This document shows positions 5,817-23,935 of a stretch of DNA of 23,935 bases, one piece after another (positions within the stretch are counted from its first letter, which is position 1; every line of letters starts with the position of its first letter). Below the pieces are notes generated by a model. The model saw only the letters and a list, made by a program, of their open reading frames with translations, did not search any database and was not told where the DNA came from. The position numbers and the translations under genes are program-made. The stretch is from a virus. Its lineage: Duplodnaviria; Heunggongvirae; Uroviricota; Caudoviricetes. The stretch spans positions 1 to 23,935 of IMG/VR virus record IMGVR_UViG_2563366864_000005; one strand, 5' to 3'.

Positions 5817-6395
5817 ATGGCCATAAAAGGTCTTGAGCAGGCCGTTGAAAACCTCAGCCGTATCAGCAGAACGGCGGTGCCTGGTGCGTCCGCAATGGCC
5901 ATTAACCGCGTTGCTTCATCCGCGATATCGCAGTCGGCGGCACAGGTTGCCCGTGAGACAAAGGTACGCCGGAAACTGGTAAAGGAAAGGGCCAGGCTGA
6001 AAAGGGCCACGGTCAAAAATCCGCAGGCCAGAATCAAGGTTAACCGGGGGGATTTGCCCGTAATCAAGCTGGGGAATGCGCGGGTTGTCCTGTCCCGCCG
6101 CAGGCGTCGTAAAAAGGGGCAGCGTTCATCCCTGAAAGGTGGCGGTAGCGTGCTTGTGGTGGGAAACCGTCGTATTCCCGGCGCGTTTATTCAGCAACTG
6201 AAAAATGGCCGGTGGCATGTCATGCAGCGTGTGGCCGGGAAAAACCGTTACCCCATTGATGTGGTGAAAATCCCGATGGCGGTGCCGCTGACCACGGCGT
6301 TTAAACAGAATATTGAGCGGATACGGCGTGAACGTCTTCCGAAAGAGCTGGGCTATGCGCTGCAGCATCAACTGAGAATGGTAATAAAGCGATGA
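5817..6395 (+). CDS. Z: Tail completion protein Z
   Basis: 192 aa, MAIKGLEQAVENLSRISRTAVPGASAMAINRVASSAISQ...; lambda gpZ homologue. Confidence 0.93.
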   Translation: MAIKGLEQAVENLSRISRTAVPGASAMAINRVASSAISQSAAQVARETKVRRKLVKERARLKRATVKNPQARIKVNRGDLPVIKLGNARVVLSRRRRRKKGQRSSLKGGGSVLVVGNRRIPGAFIQQLKNGRWHVMQRVAGKNRYPIDVVKIPMAVPLTTAFKQNIERIRRERLPKELGYALQHQLRMVIKR

Positions 6396-6787
6396 AACAT
6401 ACTGAACTCCGTGCAGCCGTACTGGATGCACTGGAGAAGCATGACACCGGGGCGACGCTTTTTGATGGTCGCCCCGCTGTTTTTGATGAGGCGGATTTTC
6501 CGGCAGTTGCCGTTTATCTCACCGGCGCTGAATACACGGGCGAAGAGCTGGACAGCGATACCTGGCAGGCGGAGCTGCATATCGAAGTTTTCCTGCCTGC
6601 TCAGGTGCCGGATTCAGAGCTGGATGCGTGGATGGAGTCCCGGATTTATCCGGTGATGAGCGATATCCCGGCACTGTCAGATTTGATCACCAGTATGGTG
6701 GCCAGTGGCTATGACTACCGGCGCGACGATGATGCGGGCCTGTGGAGTTCAGCCGATCTGACGTATGTCATTACCTATGAAATGTGA
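6392..6787 (+). CDS. U: Tail terminator protein U
   Basis: 131 aa, [54 protein letters not shown]...; ATGA overlap with Z. Confidence 0.95.
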
Positions 6788-20630: not shown

Positions 20631-21335
20631 ATGGCTACATCGACAGTAATTCCAGGAGATATCACCACGCTAAAGGGAGATGTCAGTAAAACTAAGGAAG
20701 ATATTTCCTCAATTAACGGAAAAGTATCAACGCTTCAGACTGATATGACCAGTGCAAAGCAGGATATCAGCACCAGATACACAAAAACTGAAGTTGATAA
20801 TAAGCTGAAAAACAAACTGGAAGTGAACGATCTGGAAAGCGGTCGTTATGGTGGAGATTTTTACCCGCTGACTGGCCGTGAAGCGTTTTATTTATGGGAA
20901 TTGGGCACGACTACAGCGGCGGCAAATCTTTATCTTAATCCTGACCCTGCAATTTCGTCTGTACTGCGGTCAACATCGTCTATTCGCTATAAACATTCAG
21001 TAGAGACAATAGATTCAGAGCACGCCGATCTCATTTTCAGGATGCGCCCTGTGTGGTACAGGTCGCAATGCGAAAATGACAGGAGTGACTGGGGATTCTA
21101 CGGATTGATTGCCGAGGAAGTGGGAGAAATTGCTCCTCAGTTTGTACACTGGCGACCAGCTAACGAAGATGATGCTCCTGAAGCTATTTCCAGCAATGGC
21201 CTTGTTGCCGAAGGTGTAATGTACGAACGTCTGGTTGTTCCACTGATTCACCATATCCAGAAACTGACTGAAAGAGTTGATGAACTTGAGTCAGAGTTAA
21301 AGTTGTTATCCGTTTCCCGAAGCGATATCGAATAA
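20631..21335 (+). CDS. Coiled-coil protein carrying a C-terminal Peptidase_S74-type intramolecular chaperone domain (tail fiber/spike chaperone module)
   Basis: Shine-Dalgarno gagggag upstream of ATG; C-terminal SSIRYKHSVETIDSEHADLIFRMRPVWYR...WGFYGLIAEEVGEIAPQFV...NGLVAEGVMYERLVVPLIHHIQKLTERVDELESEL matches my recollection of the S74 domain consensus (SDxRLK ... lrPV.Y ... GliAqEV ... P.V ... dG ... vdY ... L ... eLe); N-terminal ~110 aa has fiber-like heptad repeats. Confidence 0.7.
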   Translation: MATSTVIPGDITTLKGDVSKTKEDISSINGKVSTLQTDMTSAKQDISTRYTKTEVDNKLKNKLEVNDLESGRYGGDFYPLTGREAFYLWELGTTTAAANLYLNPDPAISSVLRSTSSIRYKHSVETIDSEHADLIFRMRPVWYRSQCENDRSDWGFYGLIAEEVGEIAPQFVHWRPANEDDAPEAISSNGLVAEGVMYERLVVPLIHHIQKLTERVDELESELKLLSVSRSDIE

Positions 21336-21345
21336 AGGAGGCGTA

Positions 21346-21633
21346 ATGGATATAACACCTTTTCTTCATGCGCTTTGTGCTGTGGCTGCGCAGGTACTGA
21401 TTGGCCTTTTTACCGGAAACTGGGTTTACGGGGCGATAGCTGGTTGTACGTTCTTCATTGCGCGTGAACACACCCAGGCAGAATATCGCTGGATTGAAAT
21501 GTTCGGGCATGGCAAGCGTATGAATATGCCGTGGTGGGGCGGTTTTGATCCACGTGCTTGGGATGTGGCAAGCCTGATGGATTTTGCGGTGCCGGTGGTA
21601 GCGTGTCTGCTGGTCTGGCTGTTTATCCGTTAA
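21346..21633 (+). CDS. Hypothetical small membrane protein (95 aa, two predicted transmembrane helices)
   Basis: aaaggagg Shine-Dalgarno then ATG; hydrophobic segments ALCAVAAQVLIGLFTGNWVYGAIAGCTFFIA and LMDFAVPVVACLLVWLFI; function not recognisable. Confidence 0.55.
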   Translation: MDITPFLHALCAVAAQVLIGLFTGNWVYGAIAGCTFFIAREHTQAEYRWIEMFGHGKRMNMPWWGGFDPRAWDVASLMDFAVPVVACLLVWLFIR

Positions 21634-21641
21634 ACATAAAA

Positions 21642-21690
21642 AGCCGCAGCAACTTGTCATGGCAGGATACTGCGGCTGGTTTGTGAGTTT
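21642..21690. terminator. Possible bidirectional terminator between the convergent + strand fiber operon and the - strand RT operon
   Basis: 8-bp stem agccgcag(21642-21649) / ctgcggct(21670-21677) with an unusually long 20-nt loop; A-run upstream and gtttgtgagttt downstream. Confidence 0.35.
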
Positions 21691-21740
21691 AAATAGTGTG
21701 TTTATTACGGTATATTTAAAGGACTTAATGGATTACATAT

Positions 21741-23117
21741 CTATGATATTCCTGAAATATCCTCTTCAAGTTCTTTTACTGATTTCGCAATTTTAAATTT
21801 AAATTTCCTCTCTATTTCACTATTGCTAAGTTTTTTTTCCTTCTCTTTCCCTATCCACATAGAAACAAGTTCTCGTTTCTGAGATATATGTAGATTGTCA
21901 AAGTTAGGTATGTATTTAAAAGTCTCCGCTCTACCTCTGCGGAGTTCATAGAAAGTTTTAATCAAAGACTTTGGTTTTATTTCTGATAAAAGGCCGAATC
22001 GGCGGATAAGATTATTGATAGTATGATTAACAGAGCGAAGTTGAGCTGTTGAGGTTATTTGTGAGAAGTACGATACCCATCCCAATCGTTTACCTTCAAA
22101 CACACATCCCGTAATTCTGAGATTTAGTTTCCACTGACAATATGCAACAGCTCGTTCTTTATCGCGCTTACTTTTAGCTTGTAGTAGAGCGTGCCTATAT
22201 GCAGTAAAAATTTTTGCTAAGGATGACTCAAATCTAAGAATGCTCTCATGTTTTATCAATAATTCTCGATTTTCTATGTGGTATCCCAAAAAGTTAAAAC
22301 TTTCATCCAAGCTGCCTACTTTGGATTTTGAGTTCTCTTCATTTAATGGATGTGGGTTTAAATTTAATGATTGAAGCTTATCAATGATATGAGATGCTAT
22401 TTTTGTTGCTTGATATTTGGGCGTTAAAATAAGAATGTCATCAACGTATCGCATGTACCATATGCCATGCATTTTATTGATTTCATCATCGAAATTAGAT
22501 AGTGATATTTCAGCTAAAATGTTTGATATCGCTAATCCCTGAGGTACTCCTCTGGTATTATTAGGGATACCTTTGCTTCCTGTACTTCCACTTACAGTAG
22601 GTACGATTAATGATGATGTTATTAACTGTCTAATTTCTTTTTTTCTAATCTTATTTTTTATTGCATTAAATATCAATTTATGTTCAATTGAAGGATAGAA
22701 ACTTTTAAGATCTATTTTTGCATATTCAGCATATAGACTGCAGTTTAATGCTTCTTTCAATGAGTCAATTACTGTATGTGGTAGTTTTAATCTGGAATTA
22801 GGATATATTTCCGTAAGGCATTCACAGAGAGCCCTAAGAGTAATTCTGTCCCTAGCAGTTGGTATGGAAATCTGTCTGGGGGTAGAGTTAGCCCCTTTAG
22901 ATATTAATTTTTCTTTATATGCTGTAAATTTATAATTACCAGAATTAACCTTTTCAAAAATGAAAGTGATCTCATTGTTTATTGTTAAATCAAGTTTTGA
23001 TGGGCGAATCCGATCTATGCCAATCGCTCCTGATTCTTTGATTTTTTCAGTGTATACTTTTAGAAGGTTTTTTTTCGAGAATGACTTTTTAAAAATTCTA
23101 CTTGCAGTCATAGTCAA
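21741..23117 (-). CDS. Reverse transcriptase (458 aa), stand-alone RT domain of prokaryotic defence-associated type (retron-like or UG/Abi-like; class unresolved)
   Basis: RT motifs in order: PRQISIPTARDRITLRAL (motif 1), YAEYAKIDLKSFYPSI (motif 2, Asp136), GVPQGLAISNILAEI (motif B), YMRYVDDILIL (motif C, YVDD at + coords 22437-22448), FLGYHI (motif 7), then RITG in the thumb region; about 30% GC; start overlaps the upstream membrane-protein gene by 20 nt. Confidence 0.85.
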   Translation of the reverse strand: MTMTASRIFKKSFSKKNLLKVYTEKIKESGAIGIDRIRPSKLDLTINNEITFIFEKVNSGNYKFTAYKEKLISKGANSTPRQISIPTARDRITLRALCECLTEIYPNSRLKLPHTVIDSLKEALNCSLYAEYAKIDLKSFYPSIEHKLIFNAIKNKIRKKEIRQLITSSLIVPTVSGSTGSKGIPNNTRGVPQGLAISNILAEISLSNFDDEINKMHGIWYMRYVDDILILTPKYQATKIASHIIDKLQSLNLNPHPLNEENSKSKVGSLDESFNFLGYHIENRELLIKHESILRFESSLAKIFTAYRHALLQAKSKRDKERAVAYCQWKLNLRITGCVFEGKRLGWVSYFSQITSTAQLRSVNHTINNLIRRFGLLSEIKPKSLIKTFYELRRGRAETFKYIPNFDNLHISQKRELVSMWIGKEKEKKLSNSEIERKFKFKIAKSVKELEEDISGIS

Positions 23118-23640
23118 TCCAAAGATATATTAATGGTAGTATATAAAGTGCGGCAGTAATAAATATTCGAAGTAATATCCATAAATTAACAATTATTTTT
23201 TCTTTTTGTGTGGGGAGCCTCGTCGTAAGTCCAACTTGAGTTACCCTTGAAACTTTATCATCTATCTCACGATGATTCTCAACCTCATTGAGCAAATTAA
23301 AATATTTTTCTTTCTGTTCAGGAGTTAATTGTTGGCCGTTGGTAATGTCAAAATAGAGTCGCTGTAGTGCAATATAATTCCTTCTCATGGCTATTGCTCG
23401 ACCACGAAAATCTAGGTTAGATACGATCAGAGAAATACCTAGTAGAGCCACTGAAAGTATCGCTGCAACGATATCTGTATTATCTCCTAGAACTTTTGGA
23501 AATCGTAACGTTACAATTGAAAGCACCGCACTCAATATAGCATACCAAACGAGGATAAATTGAGAGTGTTTTTCAAGCCATTCTAGTCGATGGTGCGCTT
23601 GGATACGGGCTTTATATGTAAACCAAATATTGTCATGCAT
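23098..23640 (-). CDS. Small membrane protein (180 aa), N-terminal amphipathic helix plus two transmembrane helices and a C-terminal transmembrane helix; SLATT-like candidate effector partner of the RT
   Basis: MHDNIWFTYKARIQAHHRLEWLEKHSQ then hydrophobic FILVWYAILSAVLSIVTL and IVAAILSVALLGISLIVSNL, basic loop RGRAIAMRRNY, C-terminal IIVNLWILLRIFITAALYILPLIYLWI; AGGA ribosome-binding site upstream of the ATG at 23640; 3' end overlaps the RT start. Confidence 0.65.
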   Translation of the reverse strand: MHDNIWFTYKARIQAHHRLEWLEKHSQFILVWYAILSAVLSIVTLRFPKVLGDNTDIVAAILSVALLGISLIVSNLDFRGRAIAMRRNYIALQRLYFDITNGQQLTPEQKEKYFNLLNEVENHREIDDKVSRVTQVGLTTRLPTQKEKIIVNLWILLRIFITAALYILPLIYLWIDYDCK

Positions 23641-23666
23641 AAAAGATCCTTTTTTAAAAGCGGAAG

Positions 23667-23702
23667 GGGCAGGATATATTGGAACCGTTGAACATCCTGC
23701 CC
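23667..23702 (-). promoter_or_regulatory. Perfect 9-bp-stem hairpin in the 5' leader of the membrane-protein/RT operon
   Basis: gggcaggat(23667-23675) / 18-nt loop / atcctgccc(23694-23702), followed on the - strand by ttccgctttt and then the ribosome-binding site; could be an attenuator, an upstream terminator or part of a structured RNA. Confidence 0.4.
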
Positions 23703-23935
23703 GGCAGGATCAGTGAGCATAAGCTCAACAGTAAAATATTACTGTTCATTATCAGAGCCGCCCTTGCATGCGCAAGAGGAAAAACCTGCCCCATCCTTTT
23801 GAATTATTACAATTTAATGATCTTAAAGTCAATACAAGTGAATGGTGTCCAGGGATGATGAACTTAATGAACAAACCACTCGTCAGCAGACTCCCAAGTA
23901 TCTTTCAGAGTTTCCTGAACAACAGTTTTAGCTGA

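Follow-up and report, generated by a model that had tools for sequence, protein, structure and literature searches.

A covarying RNA, probably the template RNA of a DRT10 system, between dinI and the SLATT and reverse transcriptase genes of a lambdoid prophage

What is encoded by the hairpin-rich DNA that precedes a reverse transcriptase (RT) operon at the end of a viral sequence of 23,935 nucleotides (the whole of which is here called the window)? An initial annotation, made from the letters alone, described positions 23641-23935 as about 300 bp of non-coding leader in which neither strand has an ORF and which the window edge truncates, and proposed either a structured non-coding RNA (ncRNA) for the neighbouring RT, as in retrons or some DRT systems, or an operator or attenuator. 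Our results favour an ncRNA of the DRT10 type: we estimate at roughly nine chances in ten that the locus is a three-part DRT10 anti-phage system, comprising an ncRNA, a SLATT protein and a UG17 RT, with the RNA gene at 23660-23796 on the minus strand. The prophage's defence cassette would then have three parts rather than two, and a 137-nt stretch that RefSeq leaves unannotated would be given both a name and a function. As a member of a described family, the element is already known. One study by Tang et al. (PMC12632851) described for Eco3DRT10 a 137-nt ncRNA, located just upstream of SLATT, which is bound by the RT, is needed for defence and templates protein-primed production of tandem-repeat single-stranded DNA through an A-B-A' loop placed after stem-loop 5. 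The telomerase-like mechanism of repeat addition in DRT10 systems was published in 2025-2026, and our finding opens no new question in this respect.

The cassette and its upstream border

Both protein-coding genes of the cassette lie on the minus strand. The RT gene (21741-23111; 456 aa from the annotated ATG) is assigned to UG17 (DRT10) by PADLOC (RT_UG17, 1.4e-158) and contains the Pfam domain RVT_1. Its best model is RT_UG17, at 526 bits, and all other RT models score at or below 125 bits, the value of the runner-up, Drt3a. The YVDD active site (residues Y222-V-D-D225) and the C-terminal residue, S456, are both invariant in 27 homologues. The other gene (23098-23640; 180 aa) encodes a SLATT_5 effector with two transmembrane segments (PADLOC RTasSLATT, 4.6e-57; Pfam SLATT_5, 2.1e-28), and its stop codon (23098) is overlapped by the ATG of the RT gene (23111) on the same strand. 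As the neighbours are a UG17 RT and a SLATT protein, the system is DRT10. Near-identical E. coli RT/SLATT pairs were detected by peptide searches in Table S1 of the published DRT10 dataset of Tang et al. Some databases label the RT 'retron-type'. The DRT10 system is cargo of a lambdoid prophage and sits at its end.

On its upstream side the cassette is bordered by the end of a different gene, which is separate from the RNA element. Positions 23864-23935 (minus strand), previously counted as non-coding, hold the last 23 codons and the TAA stop codon (23866-23864) of a DinI-like gene, the rest of which lies beyond the window. This gene is annotated in a genome that is 100% identical to the window over 21700-23935 (locus L001, where 6165-6413 correspond to 23864-24112 in window numbering), and its 82-aa product matches Pfam DinI (6.5e-20). 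When 21700-23935 was compared with a phage collection, only 23864-23935 found matches, to DinI genes of lambdoid and Stx phages, and the homology to these phage genomes stops at the dinI stop codon. The true intergenic interval is 23641-23863, or 223 bp. The window edge truncates the DinI-like gene and leaves the RNA intact: RNA element and promoter-like site (23660-23832) both fall wholly within the window. A DinI homologue was absent from all 44 of the non-E. coli loci described below, and the link to DinI is not a general one.

Conservation and structure of the RNA

Forty-four loci were fetched from species-representative genomes by means of an alignment of 27 RT homologues. At 26 loci, where RT identity to the window is 50-83%, about 140 nt in front of the SLATT gene align with the window and the surrounding sequence does not. 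These 26 loci come from five bacterial groups (Enterobacterales, Pseudomonas/Stutzerimonas, Stenotrophomonas, Bordetella and a MAG), and the aligned genera include Xenorhabdus, Photorhabdus and Buttiauxella. RNAalifold predicted 34 pairs in five helices from this alignment, with compensatory changes in 17 of the pairs. By direct counting, 98.1% of cells were paired, as against 49-57% when the partners were slid by one to three columns. Doubly changed cells numbered 81, compared to 23.7 in shuffled alignments, and none of 500 shuffles reached the observed value. When the window and its closest relative (L002) were withheld, a covariance model of 24 other loci recovered 23658-23800 on the minus strand (113.5 bits, E = 8.4e-26) as its sole match in the 23.9-kb window.

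The same 24-locus model produced no match in the alphaproteobacterial UG17 loci (L028-L045; 31-35% identity). Both published studies (PMC12632851; bioRxiv 10.64898/2026.04.29.721553) describe models of UG17/DRT10 RNAs as working only within a clade, a limit with which this miss is in keeping.

Folding of the minus-strand transcript, a check named in the initial annotation, gave structures better than all of 200 shuffles both for the 223-nt intergenic RNA (z = -3.24) and for the 137-nt core (z = -4.58). The single-sequence minimum free energy structure of the 137-nt RNA is the same as the consensus architecture, in which a basal stem (P1) encloses four stem-loops (SL2 to SL5) and a 20-nt single-stranded loop between SL5 and the 3' arm of P1. 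With its UG17 and SLATT context and its conserved, covarying fold, the locus bears out the earlier proposal of a structured ncRNA serving the neighbouring RT as in some DRT systems.

All parts of this structure are read from the minus strand. P1, which is seen as an inverted repeat and by RNAalifold and pair counting, joins a 5' arm, GGAUGGGGCAGG (23785-23796), to a 3' arm, CCUGCCCCUUCC (23662-23673), that is followed by GCUUUU; changes on both sides occur across the homologues in 9 of its 11 pairs. Its arms form the longest inverted repeat of the interval (12 nt, 23662-23673 and 23785-23796), which the first reading had missed. SL2, UCCUCUUGC-GCAU-GCAAGGGCGG (23758-23780), consists of eight pairs, 99% paired, of which two show compensatory changes and two are U-G pairs that are invariant in 26 of 26 sequences. 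Read from the other strand, these invariant U-G pairs would become A-C mismatches, which identifies the minus strand as that of the RNA. SL2 also holds the previously reported palindrome cttgcatgcgcaag, which is real and lies at 23763-23776, one base away from where it had been placed. The single-stranded junction between SL2 and SL3, CUCUGAUAAUG (23747-23757), contains the near-invariant columns T85, C86, T87, A89, T90, A91 and A92, and may contact the RT. SL3, AACAGUAA-UAUU-UUACUGUU (23727-23746), is 100% paired, with compensatory changes in three of six consensus pairs; it is the second hairpin of the initial annotation, which was correctly recognised and has 8-bp arms and a 4-nt loop. SL4, GAGC-UUAU-GCUC (23715-23726), has compensatory changes in two of four pairs. 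SL5, AUCCUGCC-G-GGCAGGAU (23694-23710), is likewise found as an inverted repeat, by RNAalifold and by pair counts, and sits directly 5' of the template loop. By homology SL5 would be the template boundary element; scrambling of SL5 in Eco3DRT10 abolished repeat synthesis (PMC12632851).

These patterns of change bear on whether the palindromes are instead DNA operators bound by a phage or host repressor of the RT operon. Several perfect DNA palindromes do stand upstream of a toxic-effector operon, and the neighbouring dinI has LexA boxes, though beyond the window. Across the 26 loci, however, the stems change in sequence and keep their pairing, the invariant U-G pairs and the variable G-U pairs would be mismatches in duplex DNA, and loop lengths vary freely. 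A LexA-type box is also lacking from 23641-23863, where a single near-match with one mismatch lies inside the RNA (L001, 6043-6058). What has been conserved, through compensatory changes and the invariant U-G pairs, is pairing and not DNA sequence, and we consider the operator alternative very unlikely.

A small protein is a still weaker candidate. Mechanical ORFs of 40-59 aa can be drawn at 23654-23794 (minus strand), 23679-23858 (plus strand) and 23752-23874 (minus strand), but the SL3 and SL5 loops of the homologues contain indels that are not multiples of three, substitutions take the form of paired compensatory changes and not of third-codon changes, and RefSeq annotates nothing here in 188 genomes. 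The chance that the interval encodes such a protein is negligible.

The structure also speaks to the retron option of the initial annotation, in which the element would be an msr-msd RNA giving msDNA branched from the 2'-OH of a guanosine. A structured RNA with terminal inverted repeats beside an RT that carries the 'retron-type' label might suggest this. The RT, however, belongs to the UG17 clade and scores far less on every other RT model, and the architecture and template loop match those of DRT10, whose synthesis is protein-primed. In searches of Rfam 15 at E <= 10, the interval 23641-23863 matched no family, retron msr included, beyond one chance-level lncRNA match, and 21000-23935 gave chance-level matches to eukaryotic snoRNA, miRNA and lncRNA families only, with no retron or DRT family among them. 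We regard a retron as extremely improbable and retain the DRT10 ncRNA.

One reported feature lies outside the conserved fold of this ncRNA. The perfect 9-bp inverted repeat at 23667-23675 and 23694-23702 exists, but it is not part of the conserved functional structure: its right arm is the 3' arm of SL5 and its left arm falls mostly within P1 (23667-23673), such that the 3' arms of SL5 and P1 would pair with each other. An extended SL5 similar to P1 occurs in E. coli and, in part, in Xenorhabdus; in most homologues the hairpin is short, GAUCCC-loop-GGGAUG, and lacks this alternative. The 9-bp repeat was rejected as part of the functional fold because most homologues have nothing corresponding to it and because, in the mature RNA, it is less stable than the consensus fold by 3.3 kcal/mol. 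Predicted pair probabilities in the mature 137-nt RNA are 0.98 for the consensus fold versus 0.02 for the alternative, whereas 5' extension of the transcript to the dinI stop codon is predicted to make the alternative dominant (0.94). This effect accounts for its appearance in our first fold, of 223 nt.

It is conceivable, albeit improbable, that the E. coli RNA is a conformational switch tied to the SOS response, in which RNA read through from dinI would be misfolded. Two perfect LexA boxes lie ahead of dinI, beyond the window edge, and a scan detected no terminator-like site between dinI and the RNA. If this model were true, DNA damage or prophage induction could yield a SLATT-RT mRNA with a misfolded, template-inactive leader or could otherwise retune cDNA synthesis.

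Promoter, RNA ends and the operon leader

A putative sigma-70-like promoter of the ncRNA lies at 23803-23832 on the minus strand. A promoter scan identified a -35 element, TTGACT (23832-23827), and a -10 element, TAATAA or AATAAT (23809-23803), with an upstream TG (23811-23810) and a spacer of 17-18 nt; the arrangement TTGACT-18-AATAAT matches 10 of 12 consensus positions with the TG present. The TG and -10 block stand at a fixed distance from the P1 basal stem across the 26 loci. On this sequence evidence, the RNA probably has a promoter of its own at 23832-23803, from which transcription would be expected to start near 23797-23796. Combined with the published length of 137 nt, such a start would place the 3' end near 23660, just past P1. 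As they derive from promoter geometry and a published length, both ends are approximate to about 3 nt.

Numbering from 23796 allows comparison with Eco3DRT10. The window RNA then has its U tracts at positions 13-17 and 61-64, and C107 is the first base of the template. In Eco3DRT10, mutations U15C and U62C were made in poly-U tracts, coverage dropped after U64, and C116/A117 lie directly 3' of the template (PMC12632851). The U tracts and template position of the window RNA, and S456 of the RT, agree with these published details.

The initial annotation had placed a weak promoter call further downstream. The GATAAT hexamer at 23753-23748 (minus strand) is present as described, but a promoter role is not borne out, as the hexamer is inside the RNA in the conserved single-stranded junction. 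TTGCGC-16-GATAAT (23775-23748) was rejected as the main promoter: it matches 8 of 12 positions, its -35 element is not conserved and it too lies within the RNA.

A single promoter could also serve the whole operon. The hairpins would then belong mainly to the 5' leader of the SLATT-RT mRNA, either with a role in cis as attenuator or partial terminator or with the ncRNA processed out of this leader. The end of P1 lies only some 20 nt before the SLATT start codon, and in this gap the scan revealed no further minus-strand promoter-like site; P1 is GC-rich and is followed by GCUUUU. A leader is, moreover, compatible with an ncRNA, in that the element could be both an RNA gene and a leader. Published work on relatives points the other way. 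For a UG17-A homologue, accumulation of the ncRNA did not depend on the downstream genes and was restored when the ncRNA locus was provided in trans (bioRxiv 10.64898/2026.04.29.721553), while the Eco3DRT10 RNA is a discrete, RT-bound species of 137 nt that, together with the RT, is sufficient for cDNA synthesis in vitro (PMC12632851). Within the window, the structure is not a canonical terminator, as P1 encloses a multi-branch loop of 111 nt, and no minus-strand terminator was found by the scan. The Shine-Dalgarno-like sequence AAGGAU (23646-23651, minus strand), read from the sequence 5 nt before the SLATT start codon, falls outside the conserved fold, and a GGAG-type block at this position is conserved in the 26-locus alignment. 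We consider the leader reading possible but doubtful, and prefer an RNA gene with its own promoter.

Template, product and known relatives

The template loop, GUUCAACGGUUCCAAUAUAU (23674-23693, minus strand), has an A-B-A' pattern in register with the Eco3DRT10 template. A is CAA (23690-23688), B is CGGUUC (23687-23682) and A' is CAA (23681-23679). In 24 of the 26 loci, a direct repeat of the form (U)CAA...(U)CAA, its period being 9-11 nt, has its start at loop position 3-4. By analogy with Eco3DRT10, the cDNA repeat of the window allele is predicted, with moderate confidence, to be 5'-GAACCGTTG-3' in a 9-nt register. The window loop also contains a second register, GUUC-AACG-GUUC, with an 8-nt unit (CGTTGAAC), and the repeat unit is therefore uncertain. 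Use of this second register (8 versus 9 nt) could make the product heterogeneous; in Eco1DRT10, a cryptic re-annealing site lowered the precision of the repeats (PMC12632851).

Judged by its match to published features, the window RNA is an allele of the Eco3-type RNA. At the template position, two E. coli alleles, CE10 and CFIAFB20180511, have CAAUGAUUCCAAU, identical to the published Eco3DRT10 template, and across the 223-bp interval Eco3-type E. coli alleles share about 98% identity with the window. The window differs from the Eco3 template by U110C and A112G (CAA-CGGUUC-CAA versus CAAU-GAUUC-CAAU). U110C reduces the A/A' homology from 4 to 3 nt, and the two-base change also creates the 4-nt GUUC...GUUC alternative register. 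Mutagenesis of Eco3DRT10 showed that A can be changed at its fourth base and that B can vary freely, and truncation tests showed that 3 nt of A/A' homology suffices (PMC12632851). Given this tolerance, the window allele would be expected to be active and to make (GAACCGTTG)n. The window allele was not found among the tested systems in the available portion of Tang et al. 2025; searches with the RNA, the Eco3 template and the RefSeq protein identifiers likewise gave no match in the supplement of that study, with Tables S2, S3 and S9 covered in part.

RT binding, a 137-nt size, serine priming, repeat synthesis, the A-B-A' logic and a need for all three parts in defence have been shown in close relatives, and we infer that the window allele behaves alike. 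Following these relatives, the RNA would fold into P1, SL2 to SL5 and the template loop, and the RT would bind it and prime DNA synthesis from its own C-terminal serine, S456. The RT would copy template A-B (CAACGGUUC) as far as a boundary set by SL5; the nascent DNA would then unpair and re-anneal to the downstream A' (CAA), and the cycle would repeat in a telomerase-like manner. The product would be a long single-stranded tandem-repeat DNA, predicted to be (GAACCGTTG)n. Activation of UG17-A is controlled by host ExoI (SbcB) and a phage SSB-like protein (bioRxiv 10.64898/2026.04.29.721553), and in the window system the SLATT membrane effector may be governed by the cDNA and its level, together with ExoI and a phage trigger. 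In cloning or scoring such systems, SLATT and RT genes taken without 23660-23832 should be inactive.

Of the known systems, the Eco3DRT10 ncRNA (PMC12632851) is the closest to the window RNA. The two share species, position before SLATT and a UG17 RT, the 137-nt layout with a basal stem and four stem-loops, a template loop after SL5, RT length and S456; they differ in product, which is (GAATCATTG)n with 4 nt of A/A' homology for Eco3DRT10 and is predicted to be built of GAACCGTTG with 3 nt for the window. Sanchez-Nieto et al. 2026 (bioRxiv 10.64898/2026.04.29.721553) described the UG17-A ncRNA of Escherichia sp. E3659, which has the same ncRNA-SLATT-RT module. The UG17-A RNA is about 143 nt long, is independently expressed, has an essential basal stem and programs tandem repeats from a template with a short direct repeat, ACU...ACU, on its flanks. 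It represents another sequence lineage, as its published probe and template, ACUUAUUACU, have no counterpart in the window, its repeat is 7 nt and its RT is about 445 aa.

More distant systems share individual features. DRT9 (UG28) has a class-2 UG RT, an upstream structured ncRNA and protein-primed synthesis, and the secondary structure of its RNA closely resembles that of DRT10 RNA (Tang et al., PMC12632851), but a conserved poly-U template directs synthesis of poly-dA in DRT9 whereas the window loop is without a U run. Membership among DRT9 ncRNAs was rejected on this ground and on the RT scores (71.7 bits on Drt9, 526 on UG17). DRT2 (UG2) likewise uses an upstream ncRNA to template repetitive cDNA through short repeats at the template ends; it differs in a template of about 120 nt, rolling-circle synthesis that creates the neo gene and the lack of SLATT. 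DRT2 membership was rejected, with 87 bits on the Drt2 model and a SLATT gene present in the window. Retron msr-msd RNAs are similar in being structured RNA genes beside a defence RT, closed by a terminal inverted repeat, and differ in RT clade, lack of an Rfam match here, a long msd hairpin that the window RNA does not have and priming chemistry. Telomerase RNA is alike in that repeat addition is driven by a short template together with a segment for alignment downstream (A') and a structured boundary element upstream (SL5) (PMC12632851), but the window RNA stands outside that family: it is bacterial, is primed by the RT protein and not by a chromosome end, and would serve in phage defence.

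The element is present in 188 of 5426 complete E. coli genomes and is unannotated by RefSeq in all 188. Over the 44-nt template region, 154 of these are of the window type and 34 of the Eco3 type, the window type being the commoner. This natural two-base template polymorphism among near-identical E. coli systems predicts repeats of GAACCGTTG versus GAATCATTG, and provides a ready-made test of how important the repeat sequence is for immunity.

Genomic setting of the cassette

At the prophage end, the DinI-ncRNA-SLATT-RT cassette (window 21741-23863) adjoins prfC, and in strain AR434 (L046) the same cassette adjoins a tyrosine integrase and dusA. None of the deposited phage genomes carries this cassette, dinI being the only match. 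Its differing neighbours (prfC versus integrase/dusA) and its absence from deposited phage genomes indicate that the cassette behaves like mobile cargo carried in the variable regions of prophages. The remainder of the window (1-21700) resembles a lambdoid prophage late region. It contains a long run of plus-strand ORFs, among them one of 859 aa and one of 1159 aa, and the end of this region is annotated in an identical genome as encoding an Ail/Lom family protein, a prophage tail-fibre N-terminal domain protein and a tail-fibre domain protein. At this end of the window, no minus-strand block other than the DRT10 cassette is present. Some E. coli strains (MS20649, EC130 and one other) have an IS2 element inside the RT-SLATT cassette, which is presumably inactivated by this insertion.

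The dinI end and possible read-through

Two perfect LexA boxes (CTGT-N8-ACAG) lie beyond the window edge in L001, the genome that is identical to the window over 21700-23935. These boxes, at L001 6429-6444 and 6457-6472 (window-equivalent 24128-24143 and 24156-24171), overlap a TTGACA -35 element that precedes the DinI-like gene. The interval from the dinI stop codon, at 23864, to the ncRNA promoter (23803-23832, minus strand) holds no terminator-like site; hence, SOS-induced read-through from dinI into the DRT10 cassette is conceivable. The dinI stop region also exhibits perfect 9-nt complementarity to the conserved ncRNA junction UAAUGAACA (window 23865-23873 and 23743-23751, respectively), and a second match extends over 10 nt at 90% (23854-23863 and 23744-23753). 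As a rough estimate puts the chance expectation for such matches at ~0.2, this complementarity may be without meaning.

Alternative fold and template alleles of the ncRNA

In the E. coli ncRNA, the arms of P1, the basal stem, are mimicked by those of SL5, the stem-loop directly 5' of the template (window 23667-23702 and 23785-23796), so that an alternative fold is possible. This fold is predicted to be minor in the 137-nt RNA (p = 0.02) and dominant once the transcript is extended at its 5' side as far as the stop codon of dinI (p = 0.94); other genera do not conserve it. Among complete E. coli genomes, the 44-nt template region was seen in two forms only: 154 genomes carry the window-type template, CAACGGUUC-CAA (window 23679-23690), and 34 carry CAAUGAUUC-CAAU, the type present in the experimentally studied relative Eco3DRT10.
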